Counted from the first letter of the stretch, positions 1-24,397 are shown. The stretch: DNA of 64,000 nucleotides from Cyanobacteria bacterium auto_48_18 (GCA_036170915.1 JAVHQC010000035.1:1-64000), one strand, 5' to 3'. A program made the numbers and translations. The notes: generated by a model not told the origin, from the sequence alone.

Positions 1-2
1 GC

Positions 3-4448: not shown

Positions 4449-5585
4449 ATGCAGACCTCCAGCATAAATTCAGACTTATCAGGCGACGAGCAAGCGTTGC
4501 CTCACAGGGCAGCTCAAGAAAATTCTACTTCTACAAAAACTCCCCACCCCTGGATTTTGTCGCCGGTGCTCGACTATCTTTTTTGCTGTGGCGGCTTGAT
4601 GTGGATTCTTGCAGGCATAGAGCAACTTGGAGTGAAACCAGGTGAGCAGACTTATCCTTCAATTATTTTAGGCGGCGTCTTATTCTGGGGCAGCTTGTTA
4701 CTTAGCGAAGCGCATGGTCCGGCTACACTGGTACGAGTTTTTAGAAGTCACACCACACCACGCTCGGTACGCCTTTTTGTCATTGCCTGGGCGGTGGTGC
4801 TAATTGGCTTTTCAATTTATGCACTGCAGAGTGAGCCGGTGGCGCAAGTTTTTACAAAAATAACACTGGTCTGGTTGGTGCAACACTACATTGCTCAGAC
4901 TTTCGGTGTAGTTCTAATTTATTGTATGAAGCGCAATTTTGAGTTAAGCAAAATTGAGCGCGGGGTTGTGCAATGGCTGTTGCGATCCCTCATGTTTTTT
5001 GTCATTCTGCGCATGTTTACCGTGCCTGCCTATGGTCATTTAAAAGACTTTCTGGGCATGGAGATTCCATTTTATGGACCACTGCCATTTTGGCCCATGT
5101 ATACTGCCGCTTTTATTTTGACCCTGTGTTGTTTCGCATTTGTTGGGCTCATGGTGGCCCGCTATGTTCGTAAAAAACAGATCTTTCCACTACCAGCTCT
5201 GGTTACCATTTTTTCAGTGGCAGCACTGACGCTTTCCCAAAGAGACGCATTCTTTCTTTTGGGTGTGACTTTTTATCATGCCAGCCAGTATCTAGCCGTG
5301 ACTTATTCTTATTTTTTGAAAGAAGAAGCTCAAAAAGAGGGGCGAACCATTAGCGGAAGCCATTTGAAGGAATTTCTCAACTTGCGCTCGCTGGGTTATA
5401 TTGTTCTTTTGGTATGCGCCGGTTTTATGCTTTCCATCGGGCTTCCACAAGGTATGATTCGCAATGGAGTAACTGAAAATATCTGTCTCTGCGTGCTCTA
5501 TTCTATGTCAAACTGCCACCACTTTTTGACTGACGCTTTTGTCTGGCGCATTAGAAAGAAAGAAGTACGTGAATTGCTTGTTTGA
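4449..5585 (+). CDS. Polytopic membrane protein with conserved His motifs (putative metalloenzyme), paralogue 1
   Basis: Multiple TM segments. Motifs EAHGPAT, QHYIAQTFG..LIYC.KR, YHASQYL, NCHHFLTD..VWR shared with 11176..12330 and 12344..13522. Confidence 0.7.
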   Translation: MQTSSINSDLSGDEQALPHRAAQENSTSTKTPHPWILSPVLDYLFCCGGLMWILAGIEQLGVKPGEQTYPSIILGGVLFWGSLLLSEAHGPATLVRVFRSHTTPRSVRLFVIAWAVVLIGFSIYALQSEPVAQVFTKITLVWLVQHYIAQTFGVVLIYCMKRNFELSKIERGVVQWLLRSLMFFVILRMFTVPAYGHLKDFLGMEIPFYGPLPFWPMYTAAFILTLCCFAFVGLMVARYVRKKQIFPLPALVTIFSVAALTLSQRDAFFLLGVTFYHASQYLAVTYSYFLKEEAQKEGRTISGSHLKEFLNLRSLGYIVLLVCAGFMLSIGLPQGMIRNGVTENICLCVLYSMSNCHHFLTDAFVWRIRKKEVRELLV

Positions 5586-5587
5586 AT

Positions 5588-8946: not shown

Positions 8947-8961
8947 CTTAATTGCTCACAA

Positions 8962-10509
8962 TTACTGAACCAGTTGCACAAAGTGTAAAACGCGTCGATT
9001 CTGAATAACGTCTACGCGGTAATTGCGGCAAACTTCCATGCCGGCCAAGATTGGCCTTTCAGAAGTGCTGAAGGTGCCATTCAAACGGGTGACTGAGTCA
9101 ATCACCTTAGCCGTTGTATTGATGGCATCAATTTTGCCAAATCTAATGCGCTTAATTTTGACCTGATGGGTAACTAAACGGCTCAAGTTGTTAGGATTGT
9201 TCGGTTCAATCATCTCGGTGGCCCCAGCTGTTTCAGGCAGATTGTCTACATAACTAGGGTCAATTCGGCGCAACTGCTCACTTGAAAAAACGTGCTCGGC
9301 GACATTAGCGACAAAATACATTTCTACATTTTGACCATCAACTAAAACCGAAACTTTAAAGTTGCCGTTCTCGGCGGTATAAGGTACTTCAAACTCGTTG
9401 TTCTGTTTTTTCAGAGCTGGACCGAGCAACTGATTACTTTTAGTTGCTGCTGCCACCCGTGTTTTCTGGGCGAAGCCGGGATCGATGTTCATCAGTGCCG
9501 CAGTGGCGTAGGTCTCGGCTTCAGATCCGTTGAAGCGCTGCAAGACTTGCCGATAATATCCGCGCGCTTCGTCAATTTTATTGAGGCGATGAGCGCACAC
9601 AGCAAGAGTATAAAGTGCACGTGGGTCCCGTGGACGATCCACCGAAGCTTTCCGTAAAAGTGGATATGCTTCTCTATAGCGTTTTTTGTTGAAATAGTTT
9701 AGACCAGCTTCAAACGGATTACTGAAACCAGCAGCTCGCTTAACAGTCAACACACCGGTTTTTGGATCGAAAGCTTGATTGGTGGAAGCGAAAAAATCAG
9801 CGCCTAAAATTGCCACTTTAGGATCTTTATTTGAGACCTTGACCGGGAAACTGACGCGAGACATTGTGCCCAACTTAATTTCGTGAAGAAAATAAAAACT
9901 GTCTTTATCGCTCTTGGCCAGTGCAGCACCATCAGGCAGTTTGCTTTCTTTTGCAACATCGGCACCAATTACGGTATCAGGCACACTGGCGTCTACTACA
10001 AATTTGACTTTAGCTCCCGAAACCAGTGCCTCTACAACAGGCTTGCCGTTAGCTTCGGCGGGCTTAATGGTAGAGATTGTGGCAACAAGAGGAATCTGAT
10101 CCATGCGCAAATTGGAAAGGCTGCTGACGCCACTGCCAGATTTCGCTGTCGAGTAACTCTTGCCCATAGAAGCCACCGCTTTCTTGGATTGCTCAGCGGC
10201 GTCTGACTCAGGAAACTTATTAATTACATTGGTATAGGCAGCCAGAGCCCCTTGCAATTGGCCCATCTGGTGATAGCAGAGAGCTTCATAATAATAAGAA
10301 CGACTGTCGTAGCTCGATTCGCTCTGGGCAGCTTTGAAATATCGCAAAGCATCTTTATACATTTTCGATTTAAAAAGATTGCGTCCGCATTCAAAAGTTG
10401 AATCGTCTGCAAACGCGCCCGTACAGCTAAGCACACCTGAGGCAGTAAGAGCCAATATTAGAGCCAAACTTCTTAAGCCTATCTTCTTTCCATTTATCAT
10501 ATTGGCCAA
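8962..10509 (-). CDS. Secreted protein with two tandem TPR + retropepsin-like modules (degenerate catalytic motifs)
   Basis: Signal peptide (AFA-DD). Two TPR blocks, each followed by a beta-rich domain ending in ILG (AILGADFF, PILAGMEV). First domain has FVVDASV instead of DTGA. Confidence 0.65.
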   Translation of the reverse strand: MANMINGKKIGLRSLALILALTASGVLSCTGAFADDSTFECGRNLFKSKMYKDALRYFKAAQSESSYDSRSYYYEALCYHQMGQLQGALAAYTNVINKFPESDAAEQSKKAVASMGKSYSTAKSGSGVSSLSNLRMDQIPLVATISTIKPAEANGKPVVEALVSGAKVKFVVDASVPDTVIGADVAKESKLPDGAALAKSDKDSFYFLHEIKLGTMSRVSFPVKVSNKDPKVAILGADFFASTNQAFDPKTGVLTVKRAAGFSNPFEAGLNYFNKKRYREAYPLLRKASVDRPRDPRALYTLAVCAHRLNKIDEARGYYRQVLQRFNGSEAETYATAALMNIDPGFAQKTRVAAATKSNQLLGPALKKQNNEFEVPYTAENGNFKVSVLVDGQNVEMYFVANVAEHVFSSEQLRRIDPSYVDNLPETAGATEMIEPNNPNNLSRLVTHQVKIKRIRFGKIDAINTTAKVIDSVTRLNGTFSTSERPILAGMEVCRNYRVDVIQNRRVLHFVQLVQ

Positions 10510-11175: not shown

Positions 11176-12330
11176 TTAAGCCAGCAATATTTCCCGACAT
11201 TTTTGATCCCGCAGGCGCCAGATGGCCCCATCGGTAACAAAGTGGTGGAAGTTAACGCAGGCTTGAATAATGGTAGCCACATAGACAAAACCAAAGCCGT
11301 AGTTTTGCAATATGTTGGGAATGCCCACATAGACGAAGATACCAGCCATAATCACTATGGCCCAGTATTTCAATGCTGTGCCGCTCGTGAATTCTTTCAT
11401 GAGATTACGGCCAACATCAGACATCCGTCCTTCTTCCATACCTTTCTCTTTCAGATAGAATCCAAGAGAAACTGCCAGGTATTGACTACCATGGAAAAAT
11501 GGCGGTCCGTAGACCCAGACGATGGAATTGGCAGCACCAGTAGAGAGGCCGATGCCGAGAATGGTGCAAATCAAGCACAGCGTAGGCAATGGAATTAGCT
11601 TTTTCTCTAAAATATACTTTCGTACCACCACAGTGACGAATGCCAGAGTCATAACGATCAAAGCAATCTTGCAACAACTGAAGAGCTGGTAGGGCAGACC
11701 ATAAAACGGCAACTTAACACCGTAGAGATCGTCAGGCGAAAGTTCTCTAAAACAAAGAATGCGGCTGATGACAAAGGCCGAGAAAGAATGCATAAACCAG
11801 CGGTAAGTTTCACGCTCCCATGGTTTAAAGAAATAGCCGCGCTTGTAGCAATAAATTAGTGAGATACCAAAAGTCTGTCCGACATAATGCTGGAACACCC
11901 ACATCAAATGCAGGTAGACACAAAAACCAGCTGCTTTGGGATAAAGCAGGCAGAGACCAAAGAGAAGCACAGAGCACCATGGCAAATAATAAGCGTAGAG
12001 CTTAAAGCGTTCGCGGTTTTCAGGCGTAGCATAGATGCGCATATAGGTTGCGATGGTGTGCGAGTCGGCAAACAAATATGAACCGAAGGTGCTCATAAAA
12101 AGCAGCACCCAGGCTGTGGTGCCTGCAGCTCCCGGCAAAGCGGGATCTATGGTATCCCAGTGAAACCAGAATATTTGCAGAGCAAAAATAGCCCAGAGTG
12201 CCCCACCAAAGACAAACAAGCTGTCGAAGACCGGATTGACTATCCAGCGGTTACCCAAAACTTTCTCTTGAGCTTTTGCCGGAGCCGGTGATGCGGTATC
12301 TCCGTCACGTGTGAAAGTGGTGCTAACCAT
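11176..12330 (-). CDS. Polytopic membrane protein with conserved His motifs, paralogue 2
   Basis: DSHTIATY, QHYVGQTFG.SLIYCYKRGY, FHGSQYL, NFHHFVTDGAIWRLRD. Confidence 0.75.
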   Translation of the reverse strand: MVSTTFTRDGDTASPAPAKAQEKVLGNRWIVNPVFDSLFVFGGALWAIFALQIFWFHWDTIDPALPGAAGTTAWVLLFMSTFGSYLFADSHTIATYMRIYATPENRERFKLYAYYLPWCSVLLFGLCLLYPKAAGFCVYLHLMWVFQHYVGQTFGISLIYCYKRGYFFKPWERETYRWFMHSFSAFVISRILCFRELSPDDLYGVKLPFYGLPYQLFSCCKIALIVMTLAFVTVVVRKYILEKKLIPLPTLCLICTILGIGLSTGAANSIVWVYGPPFFHGSQYLAVSLGFYLKEKGMEEGRMSDVGRNLMKEFTSGTALKYWAIVIMAGIFVYVGIPNILQNYGFGFVYVATIIQACVNFHHFVTDGAIWRLRDQKCREILLA

Positions 12331-12343
12331 TTAAGAAGGCCCC

Positions 12344-13522
12344 CTAAGCGAGAAGTATCTTGCGGCAGCGCGGATCGCGCAGTCGCCAGATGGCAGCGTC
12401 GGTGACGAAGTGGTGGTAGTTAACGCATGCAAGCACAAGACCTGCCACCAGTGGATACGAGAAGCCGATTTGACCGAAGAAATGCGGAATGCCGACATAG
12501 AAGAAACAACCTGAAAGGATAACTAAGCCAAGATATTTCAAACCTGGTGAACCCAGGGCAGCTTTAGTGATCTCCCAGGTGTTCATGCCTTTAGGCATGC
12601 CGCGCTCTTTGATGTAATAAGCCATACACACAGCCAGATATTGACTGCCGTGGAAAAATCCAGGTACATAGAACCAGAACATGGAATTAGCAACATCACG
12701 GCTCAGGCCAAGACCAGCCACTGTACCCACGATCATCAAAGCAGGTATGGGCATGAATTTGTTTTCTTTGAAGAACTTACGGGTCAACATCACCACAAAG
12801 GCAATGGTCATGCCAATCATGAGGAAGCGACCGATATCAGTAAGCACTGGAGGCAGTGGCCCCCAGAACGGCATATCAACACCGAACCAGTTGCGTGGGC
12901 TAAATTCTCTGAAGCTGACAAATCGAATAGTGGTGTAGCCCACCATGGAGAACATAAACCAGCGGAATATTTCTTTCTCCATATTGTTAAAGATATAGCC
13001 GCGCTTATAACAATAAATAAGAGCGATGCCGAAAGACTGTGCAACATAATGCCAGTAAACAGTGACCAGATAAATGTAGACAAAAGTACCAGTCATGCCA
13101 GGCAAGGTCAGTCCAACAATGAACATTGGAATAGTTGAGTAGGCGAGCCATGTGCGGTGAAACTTAAATCGAGCGCGATCTTCATCGCTACCCCAAATTC
13201 TCAAATAAGTTGCCGAATTATGTGAGTCAGCAAAAATATGTTGAGAAAGGAAACCAACCGTCATCAGCCACCAAGCGGCCGGATTAGTAGCAAGCCCGTC
13301 TGGCACTCGCCATCCTAAATATAGATAGTTCAATATCAACAGGGCAACAGCGCCGCCACCGAAAACAAACATAAAATCAAAAATCGGCGAAATAATCCAC
13401 GGATATGGCCCAGCCGGATTTGACGCCAGGGGCGTCTCGGTTTTTGCCATGGGATCTTGAAGCGAGGGCTCAAGAGCACTGGAGGAGGGAAGCCCTGAAC
13501 TGGGAATGCTGCTGCTGACCAT
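12344..13522 (-). CDS. Polytopic membrane protein with conserved His motifs, paralogue 3
   Basis: DSHNSATY, WHYVAQSFG.ALIYCYKRGY, FHGSQYL, NYHHFVTDAAIWRLRD. GAGG RBS upstream. Confidence 0.75.
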   Translation of the reverse strand: MVSSSIPSSGLPSSSALEPSLQDPMAKTETPLASNPAGPYPWIISPIFDFMFVFGGGAVALLILNYLYLGWRVPDGLATNPAAWWLMTVGFLSQHIFADSHNSATYLRIWGSDEDRARFKFHRTWLAYSTIPMFIVGLTLPGMTGTFVYIYLVTVYWHYVAQSFGIALIYCYKRGYIFNNMEKEIFRWFMFSMVGYTTIRFVSFREFSPRNWFGVDMPFWGPLPPVLTDIGRFLMIGMTIAFVVMLTRKFFKENKFMPIPALMIVGTVAGLGLSRDVANSMFWFYVPGFFHGSQYLAVCMAYYIKERGMPKGMNTWEITKAALGSPGLKYLGLVILSGCFFYVGIPHFFGQIGFSYPLVAGLVLACVNYHHFVTDAAIWRLRDPRCRKILLA

Positions 13523-13787: not shown

Positions 13788-14786
13788 CTATTCCGCCAGG
13801 TAATAGCTGGCAGTGCGTTTGATGGTTGCGGCAAAAGGGGTGGGAGTGAAATTCAACTCGGCCTGCGCTTTTTTACAATCAAAAAAAATCTTGTAGTTAG
13901 ACAGATAGGCTACTTGCCAGGTCAGCGCACTTTTAATATTCAGCTTTGGTAGTACGCGCTCAGCCACAGTTCCGGCGAACTCCACTAGAAAGCGCGGCAA
14001 AACCACCACCGGCGGCCGGCAAGAATAAATCTTGGCGAAAAGCTGACCGGCTTCTTTATAAGTAAGATTAGCCGACACCAGGCTATAACGTTCACCAGCT
14101 CGGCCCAGGGTAATGGCTTTAACATGGGCATCAATGATGTCGACAATATCAGAATAAGGTGTGCCACCAGCCGGCACACCAAGCATAAAGCCTTTGGAGA
14201 GAGATTTAAAAATTACATGATGGTGAGGGTGCGTGTCACCCTCACCAAATATGATACCAGGACATAACATCAGCACATTCAAACCAGCAGCAAAATACTC
14301 TGCCACCACTTCTTCAGCCTCATGCTTAGTGTCGCAATAAGAAAGACCCAGGCCGTCCAGATTGTACTTGAAGGTTTCATCACCAGTGGTGCCCTCAGGT
14401 GGAATACCAAAGGCGGCGATAGAACTGGTATGGATCACTCTGCTGACATTTTTCAGCAGGCAAGCGCGCATGACGTTGCGCGTGCCGTCTACATTTACAG
14501 CCCTCTGGCGCGGCAGATCGGCTGAGCGATATGACACCAGGCCAGCCATGTGAAAGACAATATCTTTGTCAGTGCACGCCTGCAAGACTTGTTCAAAGTT
14601 AGTGACGTCACCACTATAGTGCTGTACGCCGAGCTCGTTAAACTGTTTTGATTGGCCGCTGGCTCGGCCAAGAGTAGTGACAGTATGCCCTTCTTGCACA
14701 AGGCGTGGTACCAGATGCGAACCGATGAAGCCACTGGCACCGGTGACTAAAATTCGTTTGCCTACCGACTGCTCACTGGCTGTCAC
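13788..14786 (-). CDS. Extended SDR, NAD-dependent epimerase/dehydratase (dihydroflavonol reductase/HpnA-like)
   Basis: TGASGFIG Rossmann motif, HTSS, YCDTK catalytic motif, GRAGERY. Confidence 0.85.
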   Translation of the reverse strand: MTASEQSVGKRILVTGASGFIGSHLVPRLVQEGHTVTTLGRASGQSKQFNELGVQHYSGDVTNFEQVLQACTDKDIVFHMAGLVSYRSADLPRQRAVNVDGTRNVMRACLLKNVSRVIHTSSIAAFGIPPEGTTGDETFKYNLDGLGLSYCDTKHEAEEVVAEYFAAGLNVLMLCPGIIFGEGDTHPHHHVIFKSLSKGFMLGVPAGGTPYSDIVDIIDAHVKAITLGRAGERYSLVSANLTYKEAGQLFAKIYSCRPPVVVLPRFLVEFAGTVAERVLPKLNIKSALTWQVAYLSNYKIFFDCKKAQAELNFTPTPFAATIKRTASYYLAE

Positions 14787-15790
14787 TAGTCTCCATCCCA
14801 GTTTCGATAAGTAGAAAGCGCTTGGCCCAACTCTGTCGGTGGGCGGCCGATGATCTCGGCTAATTTATTGTCATGACAAATATTATCAAAACCAGCCATC
14901 AGAGCCTGGTCTTTACTAACGAGAGGCACGTTCTGAAAGCGCTGCATCACTCCTGCCGCGGCCAGAGCCACAGGCACAGGAATGTCAAAAAATGATTTCT
15001 TAATACCCAGCACGCTCAAAATTTCGCTCACCACCTGACGCATGGAAATCGGCGCCAGACCACCAATTTCGCAAATATCGCTCACGCCTGCGGCCGATAT
15101 CTTTGTGACAATGGCCTCAGCCAGATCGGCAACAAACACTGGTTGCACAAGATTTTTGCCACCGTTAATCAGCGGCACTAGCGGACGCGTTCTAGCCAGA
15201 TGCCGGTAACGTTTGACTAATTTACTGTCGCGCCGGCCCACCGTACGGCCAACAATTAGAGAAGGCCTAAAGATAGTAGAAGTAATTTGGGCACCATCAA
15301 GTTCGGCCAGCAATGCCAACTCTGCTTCTCTTTTACTGCGCAAATATTCACTGGGCGAATCTAAATCAGCACCAAGCGAAGTGATCATTGCCGCATGAGC
15401 AAAACCTCCCACGTCCTTGGCTCGTACACACCAGCTGGCAAAGGCTCGACTTTGCTCCTGATGCAGCTGAGCAAATTTTTCGTTCTTTCCTGGTGCCACA
15501 GAGCCAATCAAATGAACAGCAGCTGTAATGCCGGCAAAGGCGTCTTCTAATTTGCGCTTCTGACCAGCAGGCGTGTTTTGAAAATTAGTCAGATCCGCTT
15601 GAAATATTTGCGCACCACATTGCTCAAGAAAAGCAATATCAGCAGGCGTGGCCTGGGGCCTGACCAGTGCGTGCACTTTTGCACCCTGTTGTGATAGAGC
15701 GGCTACAACGTGATTACCAAGATAACCAGTTGCACCATCTACCAGAACAATTTGATTGTCGCTCAATTTACTTATTGCCGTTTCCACCAC
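14786..15790 (-). CDS. Atypical SDR, NAD(P)H-binding (NDUFA9-like) protein
   Basis: GATGYLG, SEYLRSK..AE, RPSLIVG, VQPVFVADLA. Confidence 0.8.
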   Translation of the reverse strand: MVETAISKLSDNQIVLVDGATGYLGNHVVAALSQQGAKVHALVRPQATPADIAFLEQCGAQIFQADLTNFQNTPAGQKRKLEDAFAGITAAVHLIGSVAPGKNEKFAQLHQEQSRAFASWCVRAKDVGGFAHAAMITSLGADLDSPSEYLRSKREAELALLAELDGAQITSTIFRPSLIVGRTVGRRDSKLVKRYRHLARTRPLVPLINGGKNLVQPVFVADLAEAIVTKISAAGVSDICEIGGLAPISMRQVVSEILSVLGIKKSFFDIPVPVALAAAGVMQRFQNVPLVSKDQALMAGFDNICHDNKLAEIIGRPPTELGQALSTYRNWDGD

Positions 15791-16305
15791 ACCAGTGAAT
15801 GGCTGGTGAATGGTGATGAGGCGGTTTTATCGTTGCCGTGGCCATTGCCGTGGCCCTTCGCATGGCCATTATGGCCACCGTGAGGGCGCGTACCTGTACC
15901 TTTGGCAAGAGTGTTTTTATCTGAGCCAGCACCAAATGCGCCACCATCAAATAGACTCCAGATCTTTGCTTGCAAACTACCGAGTTCGAAGCGACGGCTG
16001 ATGTTTTTGATCAAGGTGACTTCGCCCACTTCATTGCCCTGGCTGCGATGGCCTAGATACTGAAAAAGATAGCCGAAAAATACCAAAACCACACCAAGCG
16101 CCAGGTTAGAGTTTCCACTTTCACTGTCGTGCTTTGCTGATTTTGAAACCAGGCTGCTGCCTATTAGCCAGAAACCATAAAAAGCAGCAGGCACACCAAC
16201 AATATGCAAAGCGGCATTAACCGGATGCCGATGACGATGCATGTAGTCTACGGCAAATCTCGAGGCCACTTTGCCGATTCTCCGTACACCAGTTCTATTT
16301 TTCAT
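15772..16305 (-). CDS. Mpo1-like / DUF962 membrane protein
   Basis: Y..RHRHPVN..LHIVGVP and FQYLGH..QGN motifs, two TM helices, His/Gly-rich tail. Confidence 0.75.
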   Translation of the reverse strand: MKNRTGVRRIGKVASRFAVDYMHRHRHPVNAALHIVGVPAAFYGFWLIGSSLVSKSAKHDSESGNSNLALGVVLVFFGYLFQYLGHRSQGNEVGEVTLIKNISRRFELGSLQAKIWSLFDGGAFGAGSDKNTLAKGTGTRPHGGHNGHAKGHGNGHGNDKTASSPFTSHSLVWWKRQ

Positions 16306-16307
16306 CG

Positions 16308-17336
16308 CTATTTTTTCTCAGTAAAGCTTTTCATAGTCACGGCCATACCCTCTTTAAAGGGTAGGCGCTTACTAGAATTATAGTCCAGAATACGCTCGGC
16401 TTTAGCAATACTAAAGCCCTGATTAACGGCAGCCAGACGAAAGGCAGCCGGAGAGAAGCGGGCCAGCTTGGTCTGGCTGGCAGCAGGCAACATCGGTGTG
16501 ATGCCCGAAACCATCTGGCAGACAGGCTTAACCAGCCACCGCGGCAAATCTTTTTTTACTCTTGGCTGGCCCAAACCATCAGCAATGGCGTCGAAAAGTT
16601 CTTTTTTGCTCACCTTCTCGCCGTCGGTGATATTGAAAACCTGGTTAAAGGCCTGTTCATTTAAGATTGCGCCTTTGACAGCTGCAAGCAGATTGCCCAC
16701 ATAGACAACATTAGTTTCCCTGACGCCGCCGTCAATCAGCATGGCCTGACCTGTGGCGATGGCCTGGCTGACCCGTGGCAGCCAGGAGCGCTCATGAGGC
16801 CCATAGATAAAGCCGGGACGCAAAATCGTATAAGTAGTTTTTGCTGCCTTGACGAGTTTTTCGGCTTCGACTTTAGAGTCAGCGTAAGCTTCGCCGCAAA
16901 GCACAAGCGGCGCATTTTCATCTAGGTCAAACTGATCTCCCTGACCAGTAATAACTGATAAGGAGCTGATGTGGATAAACTGCTTGACACCGTTTTTTAC
17001 GGCCGCCGCAAGAGCATTTTCGGTGCCCCCGACATTGATGGCAAAAATGGTTTCGCGCTTGGCAAGAGGGTCCACAAAACCAGCAGCGTGAATGACAACG
17101 TCCACTCCGGAAAGCGCTTGATCGATGGCATTGGCATCAGTGACGTCCGCCAGCCTCGACACAATATCAGTGCAAGCCTGCGGAGCTGCCTGTGCCACCA
17201 ATTGATCAAGCAAATTTTTCTTTCGACCAATAGCCACAACTGCATATTCTAAGCATAAACCTTTTACCAGGGCCTGGCCAACCAGACCAGTGGCCCCCGT
17301 GATGGCCACAGTGACTTTACGATTTTCCATACTCAT
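16308..17336 (-). CDS. Extended SDR (3-beta-HSD/OleD-like)
   Basis: TGATGLVG, HAAG, HISS, YADSK, LRPGFIYGP, FNITDG. Confidence 0.85.
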   Translation of the reverse strand: MSMENRKVTVAITGATGLVGQALVKGLCLEYAVVAIGRKKNLLDQLVAQAAPQACTDIVSRLADVTDANAIDQALSGVDVVIHAAGFVDPLAKRETIFAINVGGTENALAAAVKNGVKQFIHISSLSVITGQGDQFDLDENAPLVLCGEAYADSKVEAEKLVKAAKTTYTILRPGFIYGPHERSWLPRVSQAIATGQAMLIDGGVRETNVVYVGNLLAAVKGAILNEQAFNQVFNITDGEKVSKKELFDAIADGLGQPRVKKDLPRWLVKPVCQMVSGITPMLPAASQTKLARFSPAAFRLAAVNQGFSIAKAERILDYNSSKRLPFKEGMAVTMKSFTEKK

Positions 17337-17353
17337 CTCATTAATAGGTAGTT

Positions 17354-19051
17354 CTATATAGCTTGTATCAGAGTGCCGCGATCTAAAGATTCTAAACTTT
17401 GAGAGAAATTACCCTGGGCGCTAAGCAAAGGTATTTTTACTTGAGCTTCTGGAGCTCCTTCATGCACTCTTTGTTGTCGCAAGCGCGCATATGTCCCGGC
17501 AGGAAGATATTTTAGCCTGGGTTCACCCAATCGTTTGCTCGTGCGCTTGTCTAAATATTCAGGATTTTGCATCTGCAGAGATTGATCAAATGCGTGTAAG
17601 AAGCTTTCCACAATAACTGGGGGCAGCTCGCGCTCGGTTTCGGCGTAGCAGACATAATAGGGCGGCAAACCAAGTTCGACTTCAGCTGTAAAATGCTTCA
17701 GCTCCAGTAGACCGAGCTCGTTTACAGCACGACCAAGGGCGCTTAACACCTGTTCTTCGGTCAATTTTTCACCAGTGACAGAACTGATGCCGGCGCCTTT
17801 GCGTACAAATCTGATCACAGGCGTAGCGTCTAAAAATCTATCCACTTCCATCAAATCATTGATGTTGTAGCGATAAAGACCGGCACTGGTAGTGAAGTGT
17901 ATGTAATAGCGGCCGCCCACAACCAGCTCATCAGCAGTAAGATATCTAGCGTTCGGTGAATCCATTTGATCTTCTTCCACAAATTCGAAGAAGTGAGAAG
18001 TCACCGCCAACGGGCCTCCGGCGCCTTCATTGTCGATAGGCACAGTGCCGCGGCCTTCCGAAGCCATGTAGCCAAAATCTCTTTGCGACGGAGTGCCGAA
18101 CAACTGCGGCAACTTTTCCAGATAGAAAGACATGGGCCCGCCCTTCCACAAAGACATAATGTCGATATCAGTCCAAACATGTTTTGGAATCAGGGCATTA
18201 TGCTGTTCGAGCAAAGCAGCAAGACGTCTGGCGCGAGGCAAATCGGCTTTAAGATATGGATCAAAAGCTTTTCGCACTGACGGCTCGATGTAGTCAGTCA
18301 GGCCGTTTAGCGTGCCAGCCGCAATATCAGCAATCAAATCTTCGCCGCGCTCTTTTAACTGATCGGCAAGCAAAATAAAGCTTGAAGGATTGCAACCGCA
18401 AAGCGCAGTGACGTTTTGCATTAGTGCTGCTCGGAGAAGCAAATAGTATTTTGCGTCTACATTTTTTACTTTACAAATTTCATAGGGCAAAGCAAAGTGA
18501 CGGCGAATAATGTCAGGCTGTCTTTTATTGAGCACACCTGAAACCGCTCCGTAAGGCAATCCGGATGGTGTAAAGCCGTCTTCATCATTGCTGGAAATAA
18601 TGAGAAACTTACCGTATGCACCTTTAGGAAAATCATTGATCAAATGATAATTGTGCACCTGAAAAGCATGCTGATAGTCTCGCAAATGAGTTTCGGTAAT
18701 GGGAATATACTTAGGCGTAGCGGTGGTACCACTAGTAGTGGCAAACATAAAAGGCTCTTCAGCAGTTAGCTGATTCTTGCCGCCATGACGCAGCTTATCG
18801 ATATAAGGCTCAAAATCTTCATAACGCGAAGGTGGTACAAACTTTTTAAAATCATCGTAGCTGTTAATCGATTTAAAATGATGCGCGCGGCCAAAAGCAG
18901 TATCTTGATTGGCTTCAATGATGCTTTTGAGTTTCGCCAACTGAGTTTGTTTTGGTTGCTTTAGGGCGCTGTAAAAGCGCTTGATGTGAGTCAAACGTCG
19001 CAGGGCCTGCCCGGCATAAATATCTAAATTAGCAAACTGCATTGAATTCAC
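17354..19051 (-). CDS. GH3-family acyl-acid amido synthetase
   Basis: TTSGTTATPKYIP P-loop, GYMASEG, AGLYRYNIND and GEKLTE motifs of the GH3 family. Confidence 0.9.
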   Translation of the reverse strand: MNSMQFANLDIYAGQALRRLTHIKRFYSALKQPKQTQLAKLKSIIEANQDTAFGRAHHFKSINSYDDFKKFVPPSRYEDFEPYIDKLRHGGKNQLTAEEPFMFATTSGTTATPKYIPITETHLRDYQHAFQVHNYHLINDFPKGAYGKFLIISSNDEDGFTPSGLPYGAVSGVLNKRQPDIIRRHFALPYEICKVKNVDAKYYLLLRAALMQNVTALCGCNPSSFILLADQLKERGEDLIADIAAGTLNGLTDYIEPSVRKAFDPYLKADLPRARRLAALLEQHNALIPKHVWTDIDIMSLWKGGPMSFYLEKLPQLFGTPSQRDFGYMASEGRGTVPIDNEGAGGPLAVTSHFFEFVEEDQMDSPNARYLTADELVVGGRYYIHFTTSAGLYRYNINDLMEVDRFLDATPVIRFVRKGAGISSVTGEKLTEEQVLSALGRAVNELGLLELKHFTAEVELGLPPYYVCYAETERELPPVIVESFLHAFDQSLQMQNPEYLDKRTSKRLGEPRLKYLPAGTYARLRQQRVHEGAPEAQVKIPLLSAQGNFSQSLESLDRGTLIQAI

Positions 19052-20348
19052 TCTTTGGTTGTTTTGATTTGCCCTGCATTTCGCTACTGCACTGAGCGTA
19101 TTTGCTTAACTTACGAGGCAAAACAGTAACTCCTAAACCAGCACTAGCACTATTGGTAGTACTAGTTCTAGTACTAGTTCTAGTACTAGTTCTAGTACTA
19201 GTTCTAGTACCCCTACCTGGGGCTCCTGCTACAGCTCCGGGAGGCACGGTCATCGACTCTCTAATCAAGTCATCTTTAAGCAAAAATAGATTCATTGCCC
19301 CTTCAACATTGGCAAAATCACCGCAAGAAAGAGCAAAGTGTCTCTGCGCTGCGGCTAGAATGCCAGATTCACCCACCTGGGCCCCCAGGTGACACTCAAT
19401 ATTGTTGGCCCTGGCCAGCTCAACCATTCTCATGGCGCTGGCTATTCCACCAACCTTAGAAAGGCGAATATTAAAGGCATTACAAGCCTGGCGCTCAATC
19501 AGTGTTTCGGCCTGTTGCATAGTGGTGAGCGATTCATCAACCATAATAGTTTCAGGCACGCTGGCAGTTAAATCAATCAAAGAGTCAATTTGGTCAGCAG
19601 CCACTGGTTGCTCACAAGAAGCAATTCTAAAAGGCCTTAGAGCCGCCAGACTCCATTTTGCTTGATCGAGTGTCCAGGCGCAATTAGCATCAACTCGCAA
19701 AATAGCATCTTCACCCAAAATTTCACGTGCTAGTTTGATGCGCGCCACATCATCGTTAAGTGAGCCACCAACTTTTAGTTTCACGGTTTTAAAACCGTAA
19801 CGTTTATAAAAAGAGAGCAACAGTTTGAGCACCGTCTTTTTACCGAATGGCACCACGCCGCCATACCTCATGGTGTCGTGCTTAACGTCTACTTGAGGCC
19901 AGGCGCCTGCAGCAAATTGCATCGGCATATGTGCGGCAATCAATGACGGCATTTGCGAAAAAGAAATATTTTTGATTTTTGCCAGTGCATCAAGCATCGC
20001 CAATTCAAGAGCACAGAATGAGGCTCCAGCTGCTTTGTGGCCGAGCAAATTGTCCGTAAAAATTCCGTTTAAAGCCGCAAGCAACTCTGATGCATTACTA
20101 AAAAAACGGCCCTGAAGTTGCGGCGCATAGGTGTAATTAATGGCGGCCATTGCGCCTTCAGGAGTTTCACCAGTGACATAATCGCGCGGCACAGACTCAC
20201 CCCAACCAATTACTTCCCTTCCGTCTTCCAAGACGACTTTGATAGAGACAACTAAATTGATGGAAAAGTTCCTACTGGCCAAGGCGTGGCCAAAGGAAAA
20301 TCGAAATGGCAGCATCACTGCCTGGCAATTTATCGAGCGAATCAACAT
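19029..20348 (-). CDS. Enolase-superfamily enzyme (MLE/dipeptide epimerase subgroup)
   Basis: GWGES.PR.YVTGET, KLKVG (KxK), RVDAN, EQP and VDES metal ligands. NIRLSKVGG has Arg at the second catalytic base position. Confidence 0.85.
   Translation of the reverse strand: MLIRSINCQAVMLPFRFSFGHALASRNFSINLVVSIKVVLEDGREVIGWGESVPRDYVTGETPEGAMAAINYTYAPQLQGRFFSNASELLAALNGIFTDNLLGHKAAGASFCALELAMLDALAKIKNISFSQMPSLIAAHMPMQFAAGAWPQVDVKHDTMRYGGVVPFGKKTVLKLLLSFYKRYGFKTVKLKVGGSLNDDVARIKLAREILGEDAILRVDANCAWTLDQAKWSLAALRPFRIASCEQPVAADQIDSLIDLTASVPETIMVDESLTTMQQAETLIERQACNAFNIRLSKVGGIASAMRMVELARANNIECHLGAQVGESGILAAAQRHFALSCGDFANVEGAMNLFLLKDDLIRESMTVPPGAVAGAPGRGTRTSTRTSTRTSTRTSTTNSASAGLGVTVLPRKLSKYAQCSSEMQGKSKQPKSEFNAVC
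19157..19210. repeat. In-frame 12-bp tandem repeat x4.5 encoding (TRTS)n
   Basis: TAGTACTAGTTC four times plus TAGTAC, inside the enolase-family gene. Confidence 0.9.
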
Positions 20349-20388
20349 GGCAGGTTTCCGAATTGCAGGTTATTGATCTCGGCGCCCA

Positions 20389-21327
20389 TCAAGTTACAAC
20401 TGGGCGTTGAGCCAGTATCCACTCACTGAGCACATGCACATATTCTTTGAACCAGGTGGAGTCAAAGTCAAGAGTATGTGAAGCATCCGGGAATATACGC
20501 AACTCTTTGGCGGAAGAAGGAGACTTTCCGTACCAACCTTGCAATTTTTCTACATCTACGATCATATCGGCACCAGCCTGCAGAATAAGCATAGGCATTT
20601 CGATGGCAGGTGCCGCTTTCTCTGCCAGTTTACTGAGCTTAAAACTTTCCACAAAAAAGCTTGCAGTGGCCTCAGTCAAACGCAGATTGTCACGTTTGAG
20701 GAAACCTTGATAGGTAGGATTGTTAGTCAGCATCTCTACTTCAAGCGGAATTGCCCATTTGCGATTGCGACCTGAATCACCAACAATGGAGGCGTATGCT
20801 ATTTGCAATTTAGTGCCCATACCATAATCGACTTTTGTGTAAATTCCCGGGCTGGTCAAAACCAAGCCTGCGATGGGCAAAGTGACGTCCTGGCCGCTGG
20901 CTGACCTGTATTCCTTCTGACATATAACTGAAGCCGCTTTAGCACCCCAGCAATTTCCCAAAACAATTATTGAGTGCCCCAGATGATCAAAAGCAATTTT
21001 GCGCAAAAGTACTTCCAGGTCAGCCAAATAAATTTTGTAACTGGAAAGATTGCCACGATCTCGAGGATTGAGCCCAGAACCACGTCTATCTGGTGCATAT
21101 ACAGTCATACCCTGACCGTTAAGCGCCGACGCGGTATTTTCAAACCAGAGACTGTGCCCTTCAATGCCGTGCAGGTATACGACAACAGGCAGTCCAGGCT
21201 TGCCTTTCCATGTTCGACAGGCCAATTGCAAATCGTCTGAAGAACGATGCCATTCCAGTGTCGGTGCTATATGAGTAACGCCAGTCATAGCCGGCAATGG
21301 TGTAGAAGTTGAGTTGAGATCTTTCAA
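20389..21327 (-). CDS. Alpha/beta hydrolase (lysophospholipase-like) with Cys nucleophile elbow
   Basis: LHGIEGHS, DRRGSG, GNCWG (G-x-C-x-G), Asp in GADMIVD, His in ASHTL. Start uncertain (TTG 21327 or a downstream ATG). Confidence 0.85.
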   Translation of the reverse strand: MKDLNSTSTPLPAMTGVTHIAPTLEWHRSSDDLQLACRTWKGKPGLPVVVYLHGIEGHSLWFENTASALNGQGMTVYAPDRRGSGLNPRDRGNLSSYKIYLADLEVLLRKIAFDHLGHSIIVLGNCWGAKAASVICQKEYRSASGQDVTLPIAGLVLTSPGIYTKVDYGMGTKLQIAYASIVGDSGRNRKWAIPLEVEMLTNNPTYQGFLKRDNLRLTEATASFFVESFKLSKLAEKAAPAIEMPMLILQAGADMIVDVEKLQGWYGKSPSSAKELRIFPDASHTLDFDSTWFKEYVHVLSEWILAQRPVVT

Positions 21328-21510
21328 AATATGGCTAAATCATTAGTGAATCAAAAGTTTAACATCCCTGAATGCATGGTTCCACTGCAGGACGCCGTAG
21401 TAAAGTAATAGCCTGTTGCCCCCGGGGCTTGACGGTAACCAAGAGCTGTGCGATTGCAGACTCGATAAAATGAGGCACGGCATTGCAGGCACAGGTTCAG
21501 GCACATCCCT

Positions 21511-22266
21511 TTGAAAAATAGAAGAGATCACTGGCTACCTGATTTTCAAGCTCAACTGAACCTGGGATTAAGTCACAGCGGTTGGGTGCAACAAGTGCGC
21601 TTAAACCAGATAGAGGGCGGCCGGGAGATTTGTAAAGAGCTCTGGCCCTTCATTAGGGAATTACCAACTAACATCGTCAGTGTTACTGATAAGTTGCCGG
21701 CCAAGCTGAGCGCAGCACGCAATTTCCTCAATCAGCTGGCCGACCAAGAGCTGCATTACCAGAATCTTTATTTGAGCCAGTGCGAGCTTGTTGGCCTGGA
21801 ACCGGCAGTTTTACGTCAATCTTTAGAAATCCCTCATTCAGCGGAACGATTGATTGCTTCAATGCGTCGTTATTGCGAAGAGGGAACGGTACTGGAGGGA
21901 GTTCAAGCAATTGTGGTGGCAGAACTGGCGGCTACTCAATTTGCCAGAGTTGTGCTCACCGAATTTGAGGGTTATTTTGGCGCCCGTATGGAAACTTATG
22001 GGGCACAAAATATCGAAGTGGGCCTGACCTGGTTGAGGCTTCACGCGAAAACCAACATTCGCCACGCTATCTGGATGAAGCGAATGTTAGACGCTCTTGA
22101 ATTAGACTCTCACTCTTATCAAAACGGTCATGACTCTAAAAATATGCCCCCGGCAGTAGAAGAAATATTGCTGTCAATCTGTGAGTTATGGCAAACCACA
22201 CAACCAGGGGCTCAAAGTATCAATTTACAATCTGGTTCTGGCAACCCATTTATCGGTGGAAAATAA
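21511..22266 (+). CDS. Heme-oxygenase-like fold protein (PqqC/CADD/TenA-like, HDO candidate)
   Basis: Helical character. QLADQELHYQNLY, VAELAA and WLRLHAKTNIRHA resemble the E..H / E / H..D..H ligand layout with substitutions. Confidence 0.6.
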   Translation: MKNRRDHWLPDFQAQLNLGLSHSGWVQQVRLNQIEGGREICKELWPFIRELPTNIVSVTDKLPAKLSAARNFLNQLADQELHYQNLYLSQCELVGLEPAVLRQSLEIPHSAERLIASMRRYCEEGTVLEGVQAIVVAELAATQFARVVLTEFEGYFGARMETYGAQNIEVGLTWLRLHAKTNIRHAIWMKRMLDALELDSHSYQNGHDSKNMPPAVEEILLSICELWQTTQPGAQSINLQSGSGNPFIGGK

Positions 22267-22268
22267 AA

Positions 22269-23039
22269 ATGCATATCAGCCCTAAAAAAACCTGGACAGC
22301 TCTACTTGCACTGGCTCTGATTTGCTCAGCTCAATTTCCAGTTGATGCCGCAAGTGGTGCCAAAGCATCAAAGAACAAAACTAGTGGTGCGCACAGTGCA
22401 CCACAGCCTGAAGGTGCCGCCTACAAAGACGGAGCCGCCTTTATTGACCGTATGATCAAGGCAGCCGAAAGCTATCCTGATTATGTCTTTGATTTTACGA
22501 TGGTGAATATCAAAGGCAAGAAGCAAACCGAAGTGGGCAAATTTTATTTTAAAAAACCGCGCTTGATTCGCCTTGAAGAAGTAGGCAGTTTTCGCAAAGG
22601 TTCAGTGGCGGTGCTTGGTCCCGGCGGTAAAGTGAGAGCAAAACCGGGCGGCGCTTTCAAATTTGTTTCTGTTGAACTATCGCCTAATTCTGATCTGCTG
22701 CGGGGAGCAAACGGCTATCCTATGGTTGACTCAGATCTGATTTCACTGGCAGAAGCATTGAAGAAGTTTATTGATAAAGACGGTTGTGTATCTCGAGTGA
22801 CTGAAAACCCAATTGCCACCACTGGTGATTCTAAAAACTATATGCTTGAGGTATATCACAAGTCATTAGATGGACAGATTTTTAAGCGAGTGGCCGTTGA
22901 TCCCAAATCCATGCTGCCGGTTGAATGGTGGGATTATATTGATGGTCAACTGAGTTCGCATTCAGTCTGGAATAATTTTAAAGGGAATGTCGGCCTGTCC
23001 GATGATTTATTCACACTCAAGGGAGCAAAAACCAAATGA
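22269..23039 (+). CDS. LolA-like outer-membrane lipoprotein/lipid carrier family protein
   Basis: Signal peptide, GKFYFKKPRLIRLE, VDPKSMLP and N.GLSDDLF motifs. ATG 2 nt after the upstream stop. Confidence 0.7.
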   Translation: MHISPKKTWTALLALALICSAQFPVDAASGAKASKNKTSGAHSAPQPEGAAYKDGAAFIDRMIKAAESYPDYVFDFTMVNIKGKKQTEVGKFYFKKPRLIRLEEVGSFRKGSVAVLGPGGKVRAKPGGAFKFVSVELSPNSDLLRGANGYPMVDSDLISLAEALKKFIDKDGCVSRVTENPIATTGDSKNYMLEVYHKSLDGQIFKRVAVDPKSMLPVEWWDYIDGQLSSHSVWNNFKGNVGLSDDLFTLKGAKTK

Positions 23040-23689
23040 CCTTCAACATTCCATCAATGACCGTTGTTGGTCTATTGCTGATAGGAATCGCTCTTTCGGC
23101 ACCTGTGCTCTACAAGGGATTCTCAAGGCGTGGCAAAGGCACTTTTTACGAGTCTAACTTCCTTATTCAAAGAGCACCGCAATTACTCTCTGGCGTCAAT
23201 GTGGCCCTGATTGTCACCAGTTTTCTGGTCTACAACAATGTGATCTCTGGTGTTCCAGGCCTGACTCCTATATTGTCATTAACGAATAGTGAGCCCAGCG
23301 GAGCACTCTTGATCGTCTCGTGGTTGGGAGTCTTAGTGATGATTAGCGGCTTCATTTTCATGATCGGCGGCTGGTATTCACTTGGTGAGGCCTTCTCCAC
23401 CGATGCTGAATTGCTTGAAGGTCAAGAAGTGAAAGACTCAGGCTTGCTCAAATTTGTTATGCACCCAGCATATTCGGGCATTATTCAATCGCTGGTGGGC
23501 TCATCCATCGCCGGACTTTCGCCCTTGAGCCTGGCCTTCGCGCTATTTGTTGTTGCTCCACTGTGGCTCAGACGAGCAAAATACGAAGAAGAGCTGCTGG
23601 TTAAAACCTTTGGCGACAAATACAAAGAATATGCAGCCAAACTAAAGTGGCGCCGCCTGGTCCCCAGCTTCTTCCCTATTGGTGTATAA
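23036..23689 (+). CDS. Isoprenylcysteine carboxyl methyltransferase/PEMT-family membrane methyltransferase
   Basis: LG..FS, G..KFVMHPAYSG, EEELL...FG..Y.EY motifs. ATGA overlap with the upstream gene. Confidence 0.85.
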   Translation: MTFNIPSMTVVGLLLIGIALSAPVLYKGFSRRGKGTFYESNFLIQRAPQLLSGVNVALIVTSFLVYNNVISGVPGLTPILSLTNSEPSGALLIVSWLGVLVMISGFIFMIGGWYSLGEAFSTDAELLEGQEVKDSGLLKFVMHPAYSGIIQSLVGSSIAGLSPLSLAFALFVVAPLWLRRAKYEEELLVKTFGDKYKEYAAKLKWRRLVPSFFPIGV

Positions 23690-23758
23690 AGTTCTAATTC
23701 GCCTTCAAGTGCAAGTGGTGCTAAACTCTTTACAACCGCCGCGGAAGTAGATTATTGC

Positions 23759-24397
23759 ATGTTTAAATCAAGTGTTCTCAGTCTGGTTACCATTTTAGGC
23801 GCAAGCGCCGGTCTTGTGATGGGCAGCGCGGCAGGGGCTCAAGAGGCCCTGGTTGAATCGGCCCGAGAGGCTGCAGCCAAAACTGCAGCTAAAGCTGCAG
23901 CCACCAAAGAGGCGCAGTCTAAAGAAAAAGCGCAGTGGGTCAAAGCCTCAATTGAAATTAAGGCCCCAAGAGAAGTGGTGTGGCAGGCCGTGCATGACGA
24001 GCGTAAGCATGATCCTGATTTGGCATACAGCAAAATAGTGGTGCCCGGCGAGCACGAGTATGTGCTTGAGCAGAAAATGGTTTTGATACCTGTGTTCGGC
24101 TCAGCTGTCTGCGAAATGCAAAATAAAGAAATTCCGCTTGAGCGCATTGATTACAAATTGATCAAATCAGATCGCTTCAAACAAATGGAAGGCAGCTGGG
24201 TGCTCACGCCATCAACTGACGGCAAAAGCACGACTCTGCACCTATCAACCAACCTTGATTTAGGCATTCCGGTACCACGATCGGTAGTTAATGGCTTTAC
24301 GGCAAAGAAACTGGCTAAGCGCCTTAAGAATGTCAAAGCAGCAGCTGAAACCCTTAACGCTAAGCTCGCTTTAGCTAAAAAAACTAATCCACAGTAG
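23759..24397 (+). CDS. Secreted SRPBCC/START (polyketide cyclase/lipid-binding) protein
   Basis: Signal peptide, ASIEIKAPREVVWQ, FKQMEGSWVLTP, C-terminal helix LKNVKAAAE. Confidence 0.75.
   Translation: MFKSSVLSLVTILGASAGLVMGSAAGAQEALVESAREAAAKTAAKAAATKEAQSKEKAQWVKASIEIKAPREVVWQAVHDERKHDPDLAYSKIVVPGEHEYVLEQKMVLIPVFGSAVCEMQNKEIPLERIDYKLIKSDRFKQMEGSWVLTPSTDGKSTTLHLSTNLDLGIPVPRSVVNGFTAKKLAKRLKNVKAAAETLNAKLALAKKTNPQ

Follow-up and report, generated by a model that had tools for sequence, protein, structure and literature searches.

A Divergent Gene Cluster Predicted to Make an Amide-Linked Lipid

A 64,000-nucleotide stretch of DNA from Cyanobacteria bacterium auto_48_18 (GCA_036170915.1, JAVHQC010000035.1:1-64000), hereafter called the window, carries 11 genes in two divergent arms between positions 13,788 and 24,397. 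This arrangement raises the question of what product might be formed when a GH3 acyl-acid amido synthetase is encoded together with an enolase-superfamily enzyme, a lipase-like hydrolase, three short-chain dehydrogenases/reductases (SDRs), and several proteins predicted to modify or carry lipids. We propose, with a probability of roughly 40%, that the 11 genes constitute a family-wide cluster for an amide-linked envelope lipid, wherein a lipase would supply a fatty acid, the enolase-family enzyme would act on this free acid, and GH3 would then form the amide. The evidence consists of gene content, gene order, conservation, catalytic motifs, and protein folds, from which the likely substrates, product, and order of steps are deduced. 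Based on the names of the closest homologs, the host is an Obscuribacterales bacterium, a member of an uncultured family related to cyanobacteria.

If this proposal is correct, the cluster would join OlsH as a second way in which bacteria form amide lipids with a GH3 enzyme and would provide a function for a large, misannotated group of enolase-family proteins currently labeled “dipeptide epimerase” or “muconate cycloisomerase.” It would also predict a family-wide envelope lipid in Obscuribacterales, which are nonphotosynthetic relatives of cyanobacteria, and such a compound could be useful as a biomarker. The three enzymes at the core of the cluster are soluble and open to direct assay.

All 11 open reading frames (ORFs) were verified by coordinate and strand, and they form a seven-gene minus arm facing a four-gene plus arm, with the strands and overlaps given in a first-pass annotation of the locus. 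The minus-arm genes, in order from the hydrolase to the third SDR, are separated by 40, −23, 17, 2, −19, and −1 base pairs (bp). The plus arm, which encodes a heme-oxygenase-like (HDO) protein, a LolA-like protein, an ICMT-like methyltransferase, and a START protein, has spacings of 2, −4, and 69 bp. Pfam models back 9 of the 11 gene names, and the HDO-like and LolA-like genes are the two without a Pfam or NCBIfam match.

Conservation Within Obscuribacterales

Sixty genomes of relatives were searched for GH3, including 36 from the same family and 24 from outside it. Every one of the 36 family genomes has a GH3 match, and 34 carry an ortholog (54 to 96% identity). In the other two, G008 (71% complete) and G030 (98% complete), the sole match is a paralog with ∼40% identity, and the 24 genomes outside the family yielded no GH3 match above 40% identity. 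Sequences of up to 20 kb around 23 GH3-ortholog sites from 22 family genomes were then read with tblastn. GH3, SDR2, SDR3, and the hydrolase are present at all 23 loci, counting a weak (24%) hydrolase match at locus L048, and the enolase, SDR1, and Mpo1-like genes are each present at 22. Plus-arm genes were detected at 21 (ICMT), 19 (START), 18 (LolA), and 12 (HDO) of these loci. The expectation in the first-pass annotation that the genes should co-occur in other genomes is thus borne out, both within the family and, for the core, in many phyla as described below.

Because gene order is syntenic across many genera, the arrangement cannot be attributed to chance, and its near-universal retention in the family fits a core envelope trait better than a sporadically distributed metabolite. 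However, ppx, an unrelated gene used as a control, is adjacent at 20 of the 23 loci, and therefore synteny of the plus arm proves little by itself. More telling arrangements are found where the locus has changed. At L042 and L043, the HDO, LolA, and START genes are gone, yet ICMT still lies directly opposite the hydrolase, and at L048, which is a rearranged second copy, GH3 itself faces ICMT-START. The HDO gene has been lost even inside the genus of the host.

The region between the two arms contains two conserved blocks (21353–21370 and 21397–21406, together spanning 21353–21406) that are invariant in six of six same-genus sequences aligned, three of which lack the HDO gene. Judging from this alignment, the blocks are likely to be back-to-back −10 promoter elements. 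A scan for promoters and terminators was uninformative, with 20 promoter-like sites versus 13.9 ± 4.3 in shuffled sequences.

One additional locus with the Obscuribacterales gene order (L121) comes from a record titled Chloroflexota, and its GH3 is nested in the Obscuribacterales family clade. The title is possibly the result of a labeling or binning error.

The GH3 Enzyme Is Distinct from OlsH

The GH3 gene (17354–19051, minus strand) encodes a protein whose N, M, and C domains score 222.8, 64.4, and 69.8 bits, respectively, versus a Pfam cut-off of 23.6. Three nucleotide-binding motifs, defined by the reference GH3 motifs given in PMC12493201, are intact at residues 105, 327, and 391 and are conserved over 81 sequences. 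These characteristics indicate that the protein is likely an ATP-dependent amide-forming enzyme.

The closest known system is OlsH/OlsI(G) from Singulisphaera acidiphila (PMC12493201 and the review PMC12971839). As described in the former, OlsH makes N-acyl-ornithine from a free fatty acid in the presence of ATP and Mg2+, although it showed no activity in living E. coli, and the α/β-hydrolase OlsI adds a second chain. The two systems are alike in joining, or being predicted to join, a free fatty acid to an amino group by a GH3 enzyme with ATP, in having an α/β-hydrolase in the operon, and in having a methyltransferase nearby. However, the cluster GH3 scores only 101.9 on the OlsH model (cut-off 620). 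Moreover, in a quick tree of 91 rows, thinned such that most family orthologs, some paralogs, and near-duplicate loci were left out, 16 OlsH-like rows are split off from the cluster GH3 by a branch with 100% support. The cluster GH3 groups with those of its own family, followed by GH3s of Chloroflexota and Actinomycetota that are linked to an enolase. For the comparison rows, OlsH-like GH3s from planctomycete and Bacteroidota genomes were used rather than OlsH itself, for which no protein above cut-off was found in 5 + 151 planctomycete-centered genomes. One genome (G069) holds both the OlsH-like and the enolase-linked type. From its score and its separate clade, we conclude that the cluster GH3 is not OlsH.

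Other parts of the two systems also differ. The cluster hydrolase is lipase-like with a Cys nucleophile, and the family hydrolase profile does not match the hydrolase beside an OlsH-like gene in L174, a comparison made with this neighbor and not with OlsI itself. The cluster methyltransferase has an ICMT fold, whereas OlsG is related to phospholipid N-methyltransferases according to its description in PMC12971839. The enolase, the three SDRs, the Mpo1-like and HDO proteins, and the putative carriers have no counterpart in the described operon. Given the score, the clade, and at least seven parts without counterpart, the possibility that the cluster is an OlsHI(G) ornithine-lipid pathway was rejected, and the gene set does not map fully onto this known pathway.

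Genes adjacent to related GH3 loci suggest that the acyl chains are long. L095 has genes for a polyketide synthase (PKS), a thioesterase, and a phosphopantetheinyl transferase (PPTase) beside the core, L210 and L213 have type II fatty acid synthase genes, and a patatin is another potential acyl source among the neighbors. The earlier description of the pathway as PKS-free is accurate only for the locus in the window, since in relatives the core is paired with PKS or type II fatty acid synthase genes.

Most family genomes also carry a second GH3 (∼40% identical) that is divergent from a GT21 glycosyltransferase gene and from an iterative PKS, which is encoded by two genes and has a PPTase domain at its end (L051–L065 and L219–L224; for example, L061:9117–10877 for GH3, 7790–8983 for GT21, and 1–7592 for the PKS). 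This locus, which was not found in the host genome (G000, 86% complete), may be a candidate pathway for a glycosylated polyketide-amide lipid. A further GH3 subgroup lacking an enolase partner (L067 and L214) occurs with two or three radical SAM genes, which are of a B12-binding type in L067. On a Streptomyces plasmid (L228; NZ_CP027299.1 14177–26521), a GH3 gene is clustered with genes for a type I PKS, a P450, an aminotransferase, a dehydrogenase, an F420-dependent oxidoreductase, and an FAA hydrolase, with no enolase annotated. No named isolate carrying the module was recognized among plasmid records, where two of 13 GH3 matches were examined; one proved to be a different PKS cluster and the other is without annotation. 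The plasmid-record enolase matches listed (15 of 36) are weak, and those with names are annotated as dipeptide epimerase or MR/MLE family. A metagenome scan with a single sequence produced no match.

The Enolase-Family Enzyme Has an Unusual Active Site

The enolase-superfamily gene (19029–20348, minus strand) encodes a protein with an MR_MLE_C match that falls in the muconate lactonizing enzyme (MLE) subgroup, which includes NSAR/OSBS enzymes, dipeptide epimerases, and MLE itself. It shares with this subgroup the KxK base, a trio of acidic metal ligands, and an acidic residue where strand 8 ends. Specifically, all 111 sequences have K192, D220, E246, and D271, and 110 of them have K190; E349 is a further residue of the signature. 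Despite this likeness, the second catalytic Lys is replaced by Arg295, EG[S/A] takes the place of the DxD motif that follows strand 8, and H21 and R55 are conserved. In dipeptide epimerases, the DxD motif holds the free amine of the substrate. Arg295 aligns with the second Lys of 2P88, 3JVA, 1JPM, and 3R0K, and among 100 sequences that were gathered without the residue in the search pattern, 98 have Arg at this point of strand 6. No NCBIfam enolase cut-off is reached (best score 128.6 versus 334.95). The genomic partners of the enzyme also set it apart from the MLE subgroup, as these are acyl-activating and acyl-transferring enzymes.

According to PMC12006748, the second Lys must serve as an acid/base in racemization but only stabilizes the intermediate in the dehydratase OSBS. 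An Arg at this position therefore makes one-base chemistry more likely than epimerization or racemization.

Near the enolase C terminus, a 12-bp tandem repeat (window positions 19157–19210) adds a TRTS repeat to a loop, and this insertion is absent from 11 aligned homologs. Also in the host genome, a distant second enolase-family gene adjoins a DUF1611-like ORF and is likely to encode a housekeeping epimerase.

Partners of the Enolase in Other Phyla

When genomes were scanned with the enolase alignment, at least 532 relatives were identified, from which 80 loci were kept. Twenty-nine of these are of the Obscuribacterales type, eight of which were so placed by gene content, their titles naming neither Obscuribacterales nor Melainabacteria. 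The remaining 51 loci, many on short contigs, are from Omnitrophota, Planctomycetota, Chloroflexota, Actinomycetota, Binatia, Desulfobaccales, Gammaproteobacteria, and other groups. At these 51 outside loci (among the best 80), the enolase is accompanied by GH3 at 34, by the hydrolase at 28, by an SDR at 9, and by an Mpo1-like gene at 4. The usual order is hydrolase-enolase-GH3, the hydrolase and enolase are fused in L091, L097, L102, and L125 (and partially in L101), and SDR1 also travels with the core.

Other outlets accompany the enolase where GH3 is missing. At Desulfobaccales-type loci, it adjoins an LpxL-type acyltransferase gene, often together with FadL, and GH3 was not found in four of four such genomes searched, whose completeness is unstated. 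A fifth genome searched, titled Bacteroidota, has GH3 genes elsewhere. A metagenome scan provided additional examples. Among the best 80 of 568 loci, the labeled neighbors include GH3 (37), AMP-ligase/Aas (24), LpxL-type (21), FadL (13), hydrolase (9), acyl carrier protein (ACP; 7), UbiD (5), and SDR1 (5), and none of the 21 LpxL-type loci has GH3. A fusion of HDO to the enolase is present at 21 of the 80 loci, for instance in the order Aas-[HDO-enolase]-GH3 at L257, which indicates that HDO is a real partner of the enolase. The window HDO is distant kin to the fused domains (hhalign E 1.5e-4, probability 51%). In L207 and L212, the gene after the enolase encodes UbiD, whose substrates are unsaturated or aromatic acids.

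Because the enolase is fused to the hydrolase or to HDO, or lies beside an LpxL-type gene in the absence of GH3, we think that its substrate is a free lipid acid. What these loci have in common, as read from their gene content, is that a lipid carboxylic acid is predicted to be supplied upstream of the enolase and that an enzyme for acyl activation, acyl transfer, or decarboxylation lies downstream.

Functions like those of the plus arm also recur elsewhere. A DUF1571 gene (LolA clan) is found in the planctomycete GH3-enolase loci L210 and L213, an ICMT-like gene in L066, and an LCM carboxyl methyltransferase gene in L218, the last of which provides an independent hint of carboxyl methylation.

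Several of these loci have additional features. The LpxL-type plus enolase loci from genomes are L080, L086–L089, L092, L093, and L139, in which FadL is often convergent and a PAS/GAF histidine kinase, accompanied by LuxR regulators, is often divergent. L257 (2701–9813) encodes an Aas that by inspection comprises MFS, PlsC, and AMP-ligase parts, an HDO-enolase of ∼620 amino acids with CADD-like E/H motifs, and GH3. An operon of GH3, enolase, ACP, AMP ligase, and UbiD genes occurs in L207, L212, L232, L234–L236, and L259, often with an SDR upstream and an FAD oxidoreductase downstream.

Hydrolase, SDRs, and Mpo1-Like Protein

The monoacylglycerol-lipase-like α/β-hydrolase (20389–21327, minus strand) scores 135.6 bits on Hydrolase_4, and its closest solved structures are monoglyceride lipases, in which the catalytic Ser aligns with C126. 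The triad is C126-D254-H284, and among 71 distinct homologs, 51 have a Cys nucleophile and 20 have a Ser. The enzyme therefore has the features of a protein that likely frees, or transfers, an acyl chain.

The three extended SDRs are all encoded on the minus strand and resemble 3-beta-HSD/OleD (SDR1; 16308–17336), NDUFA9 (SDR2; 14786–15790), and HpnA (SDR3; 13788–14786; 187.5 versus a cut-off of 367.65). Each keeps the GxxGxxG, Ser/Thr (Ser in SDR1), and YxxxK motifs, and none reaches an NCBIfam cut-off. A hopanoid link, as might be drawn from the HpnA-like SDR3 and an HpnI-like GT21, was rejected after squalene-hopene cyclase was not found in the host genome (86% complete), the sole genome searched. 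An OlsB-type N-acyltransferase (PF13444) was likewise not found in this genome.

The small membrane protein encoded at 15772–16305 (minus strand) matches the Mpo1/DUF962 family PF06127 with 28.7 bits versus a cut-off of 24, covering profile positions 5 to 63 of 95. H25, H34, and H86 of its ∼90-amino-acid core are present in 47 of 47 sequences, and the version in the host genome has a His/Gly-rich tail. Yeast Mpo1 is an Fe-dependent 2-hydroxy fatty acid dioxygenase, and by analogy the cluster protein might have a dioxygenase activity.

Plus-Arm Proteins

A model of the HDO protein (21511–22266, plus strand; pLDDT 86.7) matches the folds of UndA and CADD with TM scores of 0.59 to 0.65 and E values of ∼1e-5. 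The complete two-metal ligand pattern of such proteins is E..H, E, H..D/E..H. Five candidate ligands are conserved. In 31 sequences, D78, E138, and H178 are invariant and H185 is present in 28, but only 16 have the first His of the pattern, and His, Asn, or Gln stands where the last motif would have its Asp (residues being mapped by motif and not by superposition). The variable first His renders the activity of the protein uncertain. In the Obscuribacterales family, the gene is an accessory, dispensable component (12 of 23 loci), and thus the first-pass view that the cluster is built in part around HDO does not hold for this family.

The start of the LolA-like gene is most likely the ATG at 22269 (22269–23039, plus strand) and not position 22188, and this codon yields a signal peptide. 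The ESM Atlas neighbors of the protein fall in clusters named MucB/RseB, DUF1571, DUF2092, and LolA at 0.93 to 0.96, which serves as a lead and not an alignment, and membership in the LolA/RseB/DUF1571 clan suggests that it is likely a periplasmic lipid carrier. The START/polyketide-cyclase-fold protein (23759–24397, plus strand; Polyketide_cyc2/START Pfam match) is likely an exported lipid-binding protein. N-terminal hydrophobic segments were found in 14 of 18 LolA-like orthologs and in 19 of 19 START orthologs, compared to none of 22 GH3 and none of 21 hydrolase orthologs, although the test is crude and also flagged SDR2 in 12 of 21. Paralogs of the LolA-like and START genes occur alone elsewhere in the host genome.

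The predicted membrane methyltransferase (23036–23689, plus strand) has PEMT/ICMT Pfam matches and aligns with 4A2N (E 1.3e-7). Its score on the ICMT equivalog model (48.5 versus 160 bits) indicates that it is a member of the ICMT fold and not ICMT itself. H143-P-x-Y146, R180, and E184/E185 are present in 42 of 42 sequences, and R180 is presumably the Arg that holds the substrate carboxylate. The enzyme likely methylates a carboxylate or a lipid head group.

Proposed Pathway

In the pathway we propose, the Cys-lipase would release a fatty acid, which the enolase-family enzyme would bind as the free acid on Mg2+ via D220, E246, and D271. K192 would remove the α-proton, Arg295 would merely stabilize the resulting intermediate, and a one-base β-elimination (water loss) or an allylic double-bond shift would generate an α,β-unsaturated acid. 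GH3 would adenylate this acid with ATP and form an amide with an amino acid or other amine. The oxidation state of the product might be adjusted by the three SDRs, the Mpo1-like protein, and HDO where this is kept. The ICMT-fold enzyme could then methylate the remaining carboxylate at the inner membrane, after which the LolA-clan and START proteins would carry the lipid through the periplasm. We know of no precedent in the enolase superfamily for a Mg2+-dependent dehydratase or isomerase of free fatty acids.

The genes make it likely that the product is an N-acyl amide lipid, much as the first-pass annotation had suggested, and we consider it rather better than an even bet that a structural amide lipid is made via elimination chemistry, with the enolase acting either before or after GH3. 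A more ambitious and tentative proposal, which we doubt will hold in its entirety, is that the Arg-for-Lys enolases constitute a new, widespread family of Mg2+-dependent dehydratases/isomerases of free fatty acids with interchangeable front ends (Cys-lipase, diiron HDO, FadL uptake) and acyl-joining outlets (GH3, LpxL-type, Aas, UbiD), and that in Obscuribacterales the outcome is a methylated amide envelope lipid that defines the family, belongs to a new structural class, and is carried by dedicated LolA-clan and START proteins.

Similar combinations of enzymes are found in two other pathways. OleBCD olefin synthesis combines an α/β-hydrolase, an adenylating enzyme, and an SDR, and MenH-MenC-MenE combines an α/β-hydrolase and an adenylating enzyme with an enolase-family dehydratase. 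However, SDR1 scores 99.1 versus 580 on the OleD model, the enolase scores 58 to 73 on OSBS models with cut-offs of 131 to 288, and the adenylating enzyme of the cluster is GH3 in either comparison. A literature search found no description of the gene set and no lipid study of Obscuribacterales, although most subscription papers lay outside its reach and the supplements of PMC12493201 and PMC12971839 may list homologs from the clade. The pathway therefore is apparently undescribed, and may be a mechanistically plausible variant of GH3 amide-lipid synthesis. The earlier statement that no described pathway has this gene set is consistent with this search, but it overlooked the GH3 precedent of OlsH, OlsI, and OlsG, which belongs to a different pathway (PMC12493201).

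Several observations weigh against the proposed pathway. G030, a family genome that is 98% complete, has only the GH3 paralog. Conservation of the plus arm (ICMT, 21 of 23 loci) is barely above that of the unrelated ppx gene (20 of 23), and the family profiles for HDO, LolA, ICMT, and START match none of the 51 outside loci. L084, L094, L099, and L100 from the genome scan carry both GH3 and an LpxL-type gene, and the 21 HDO fusions and 21 LpxL-type loci are largely close kin and not independent events. In several other phyla, the core lies among genes for cNMP-binding proteins, kinases, and histidine kinases, a neighborhood that fits a signal. The closest solved relatives of the enolase (2P88, 3JVA, and 1JPM) act on N-acyl amino acids or dipeptides (a class to which we take 2P88 to belong), which favors an enolase step after GH3. 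Finally, K298, located three residues past Arg295, is invariant in 111 of 111 sequences and is a counterpoint to one-base chemistry, as PMC12006748 ties a positive charge at the equivalent position to racemase activity.

Alternative Explanations

The most credible alternative, although an unlikely one, is that the order of steps is reversed. GH3 would first make an N-acyl-Ser/Thr, or an N-acyl amino acid that is later β-hydroxylated by HDO, and the enolase would then eliminate either water or an O-acyl group that the Cys hydrolase had put in place, to yield an N-acyl-dehydroamino acid that is subsequently reduced, methylated, or decarboxylated. The activities of the closest solved relatives, the replacement of the DxD motif by EG[S/A], and the recurrence of HDO-enolase fusions, nitroreductases, and UbiD are all consistent with this order, and N-acyl-dehydroamino acids are known from bacteria (PMC12479983). 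However, the enolase is found with an LpxL-type O-acyltransferase and no GH3, and fusions join it to the hydrolase or HDO but never to GH3 in the loci screened. Moreover, the known route to a dehydrotyrosine uses NasY and a nitroreductase, with GH3 and enolase unmentioned. The stieleriacine route was set aside as a precedent, as PMC12479983 has zero occurrences of either word.

It is less likely still that the product, instead of being a structural lipid, is a diffusible lipid signal such as a DSF-like unsaturated acid or its amino-acid conjugate resembling JA-Ile. Hormones are conjugated by plant GH3s (PMC12493201), and in other phyla the core is found near genes for cNMP-binding proteins, Cache-domain Ser/Thr kinases, PAS/GAF histidine kinases, LuxR regulators, and FadL. 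Within the Obscuribacterales family block, in contrast, there is no regulator or sensor, and a bulk envelope lipid is the better match for the near-universal retention of the genes and for three reductases, a membrane methyltransferase, and carriers in the periplasm.

Two further possibilities appear improbable to a similar degree. In one, the head group of the GH3 product would be inverted by the enolase, acting as an N-acyl-amino-acid racemase or epimerase; its top structural relatives are racemases and epimerases, and K298 is invariant. This is difficult to reconcile with Arg in place of the second acid/base Lys in 98 of 100 sequences, and the distant enolase-family gene beside the DUF1611-like ORF is the likely housekeeping epimerase, a label that is itself deduced from context. 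In the other, only the minus arm constitutes the pathway, with the plus arm being a separate operon for lipid handling that ordinary chromosomal synteny keeps nearby. Adjacency of ppx, the independent losses of HDO, LolA, and START, and the stand-alone LolA-like and START paralogs would agree with such a division, but the arrangements retained at L042, L043, and L048, the analogous parts in unrelated loci, and the conserved intergenic blocks argue for linkage of the two arms.

Least probable by far is a ceramide-like lipid made without serine palmitoyltransferase (Spt) and with GH3 as the amide-forming step: SDR2 is NDUFA9-like, as is CerR (PMC11087976), the cluster includes Mpo1-like and START genes, a PKS and a gene of the ceramide-glucosyltransferase family GT21 adjoin the paralogous GH3, and no Spt above the CFB-model cut-off was found in 61 genomes (on which two proteobacterial Spt models were not run), but the bacterial ceramide pathway is mostly rejected because of this same lack of Spt and because SDRs of spt loci, called CerR from gene context, form their own branch that is not sister to SDR2, two SDRs from spt-acp-type loci score 60 to 91 bits on all three SDR profiles, there is no evident source of a long-chain base, and we know of no precedent for C-acylation by an enolase. 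Three gammaproteobacterial genomes (L318:2956–7210, L319, and L320) have the GH3-enolase core as well as spt-like loci, which in L318 has the order spt-acp-SDR-acyl ligase.

Other Features of the Window

Downstream of the minus arm, two paralogous membrane proteins with His motifs (11176–13522, minus strand) are possible members of the cluster, as the pair adjoins it at 14 of 23 loci by tblastn. The window encodes three such multi-pass paralogs (4449–5585, 11176–12330, and 12344–13522), which flank two large membrane proteins that belong to no family (5588–7297 and 7294–8946). H101, H158, H291, H370, and H371 are invariant, and from these residues the proteins are possibly metal-dependent oxygenases. 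A model of one such protein (pLDDT 80) gave no Foldseek match at E ≤ 0.001 and Z scores of at most 6.3 to rhodopsins, and the proteins have no Pfam hit.

A kbl gene (glycine C-acetyltransferase, above cut-off) adjoins a tdh-like gene at 49533–52041 and does not encode Spt; Kbl is the only strong member of the Spt family found in the host genome (86% complete). A fusion gene encoding HTTM and DCC1-like domains (2374–3693) follows two small look-alike genes in the region 907–3693, and a long ORF with collagen-like Gly-Pro-X repeats (1–880) runs off the end of the contig.

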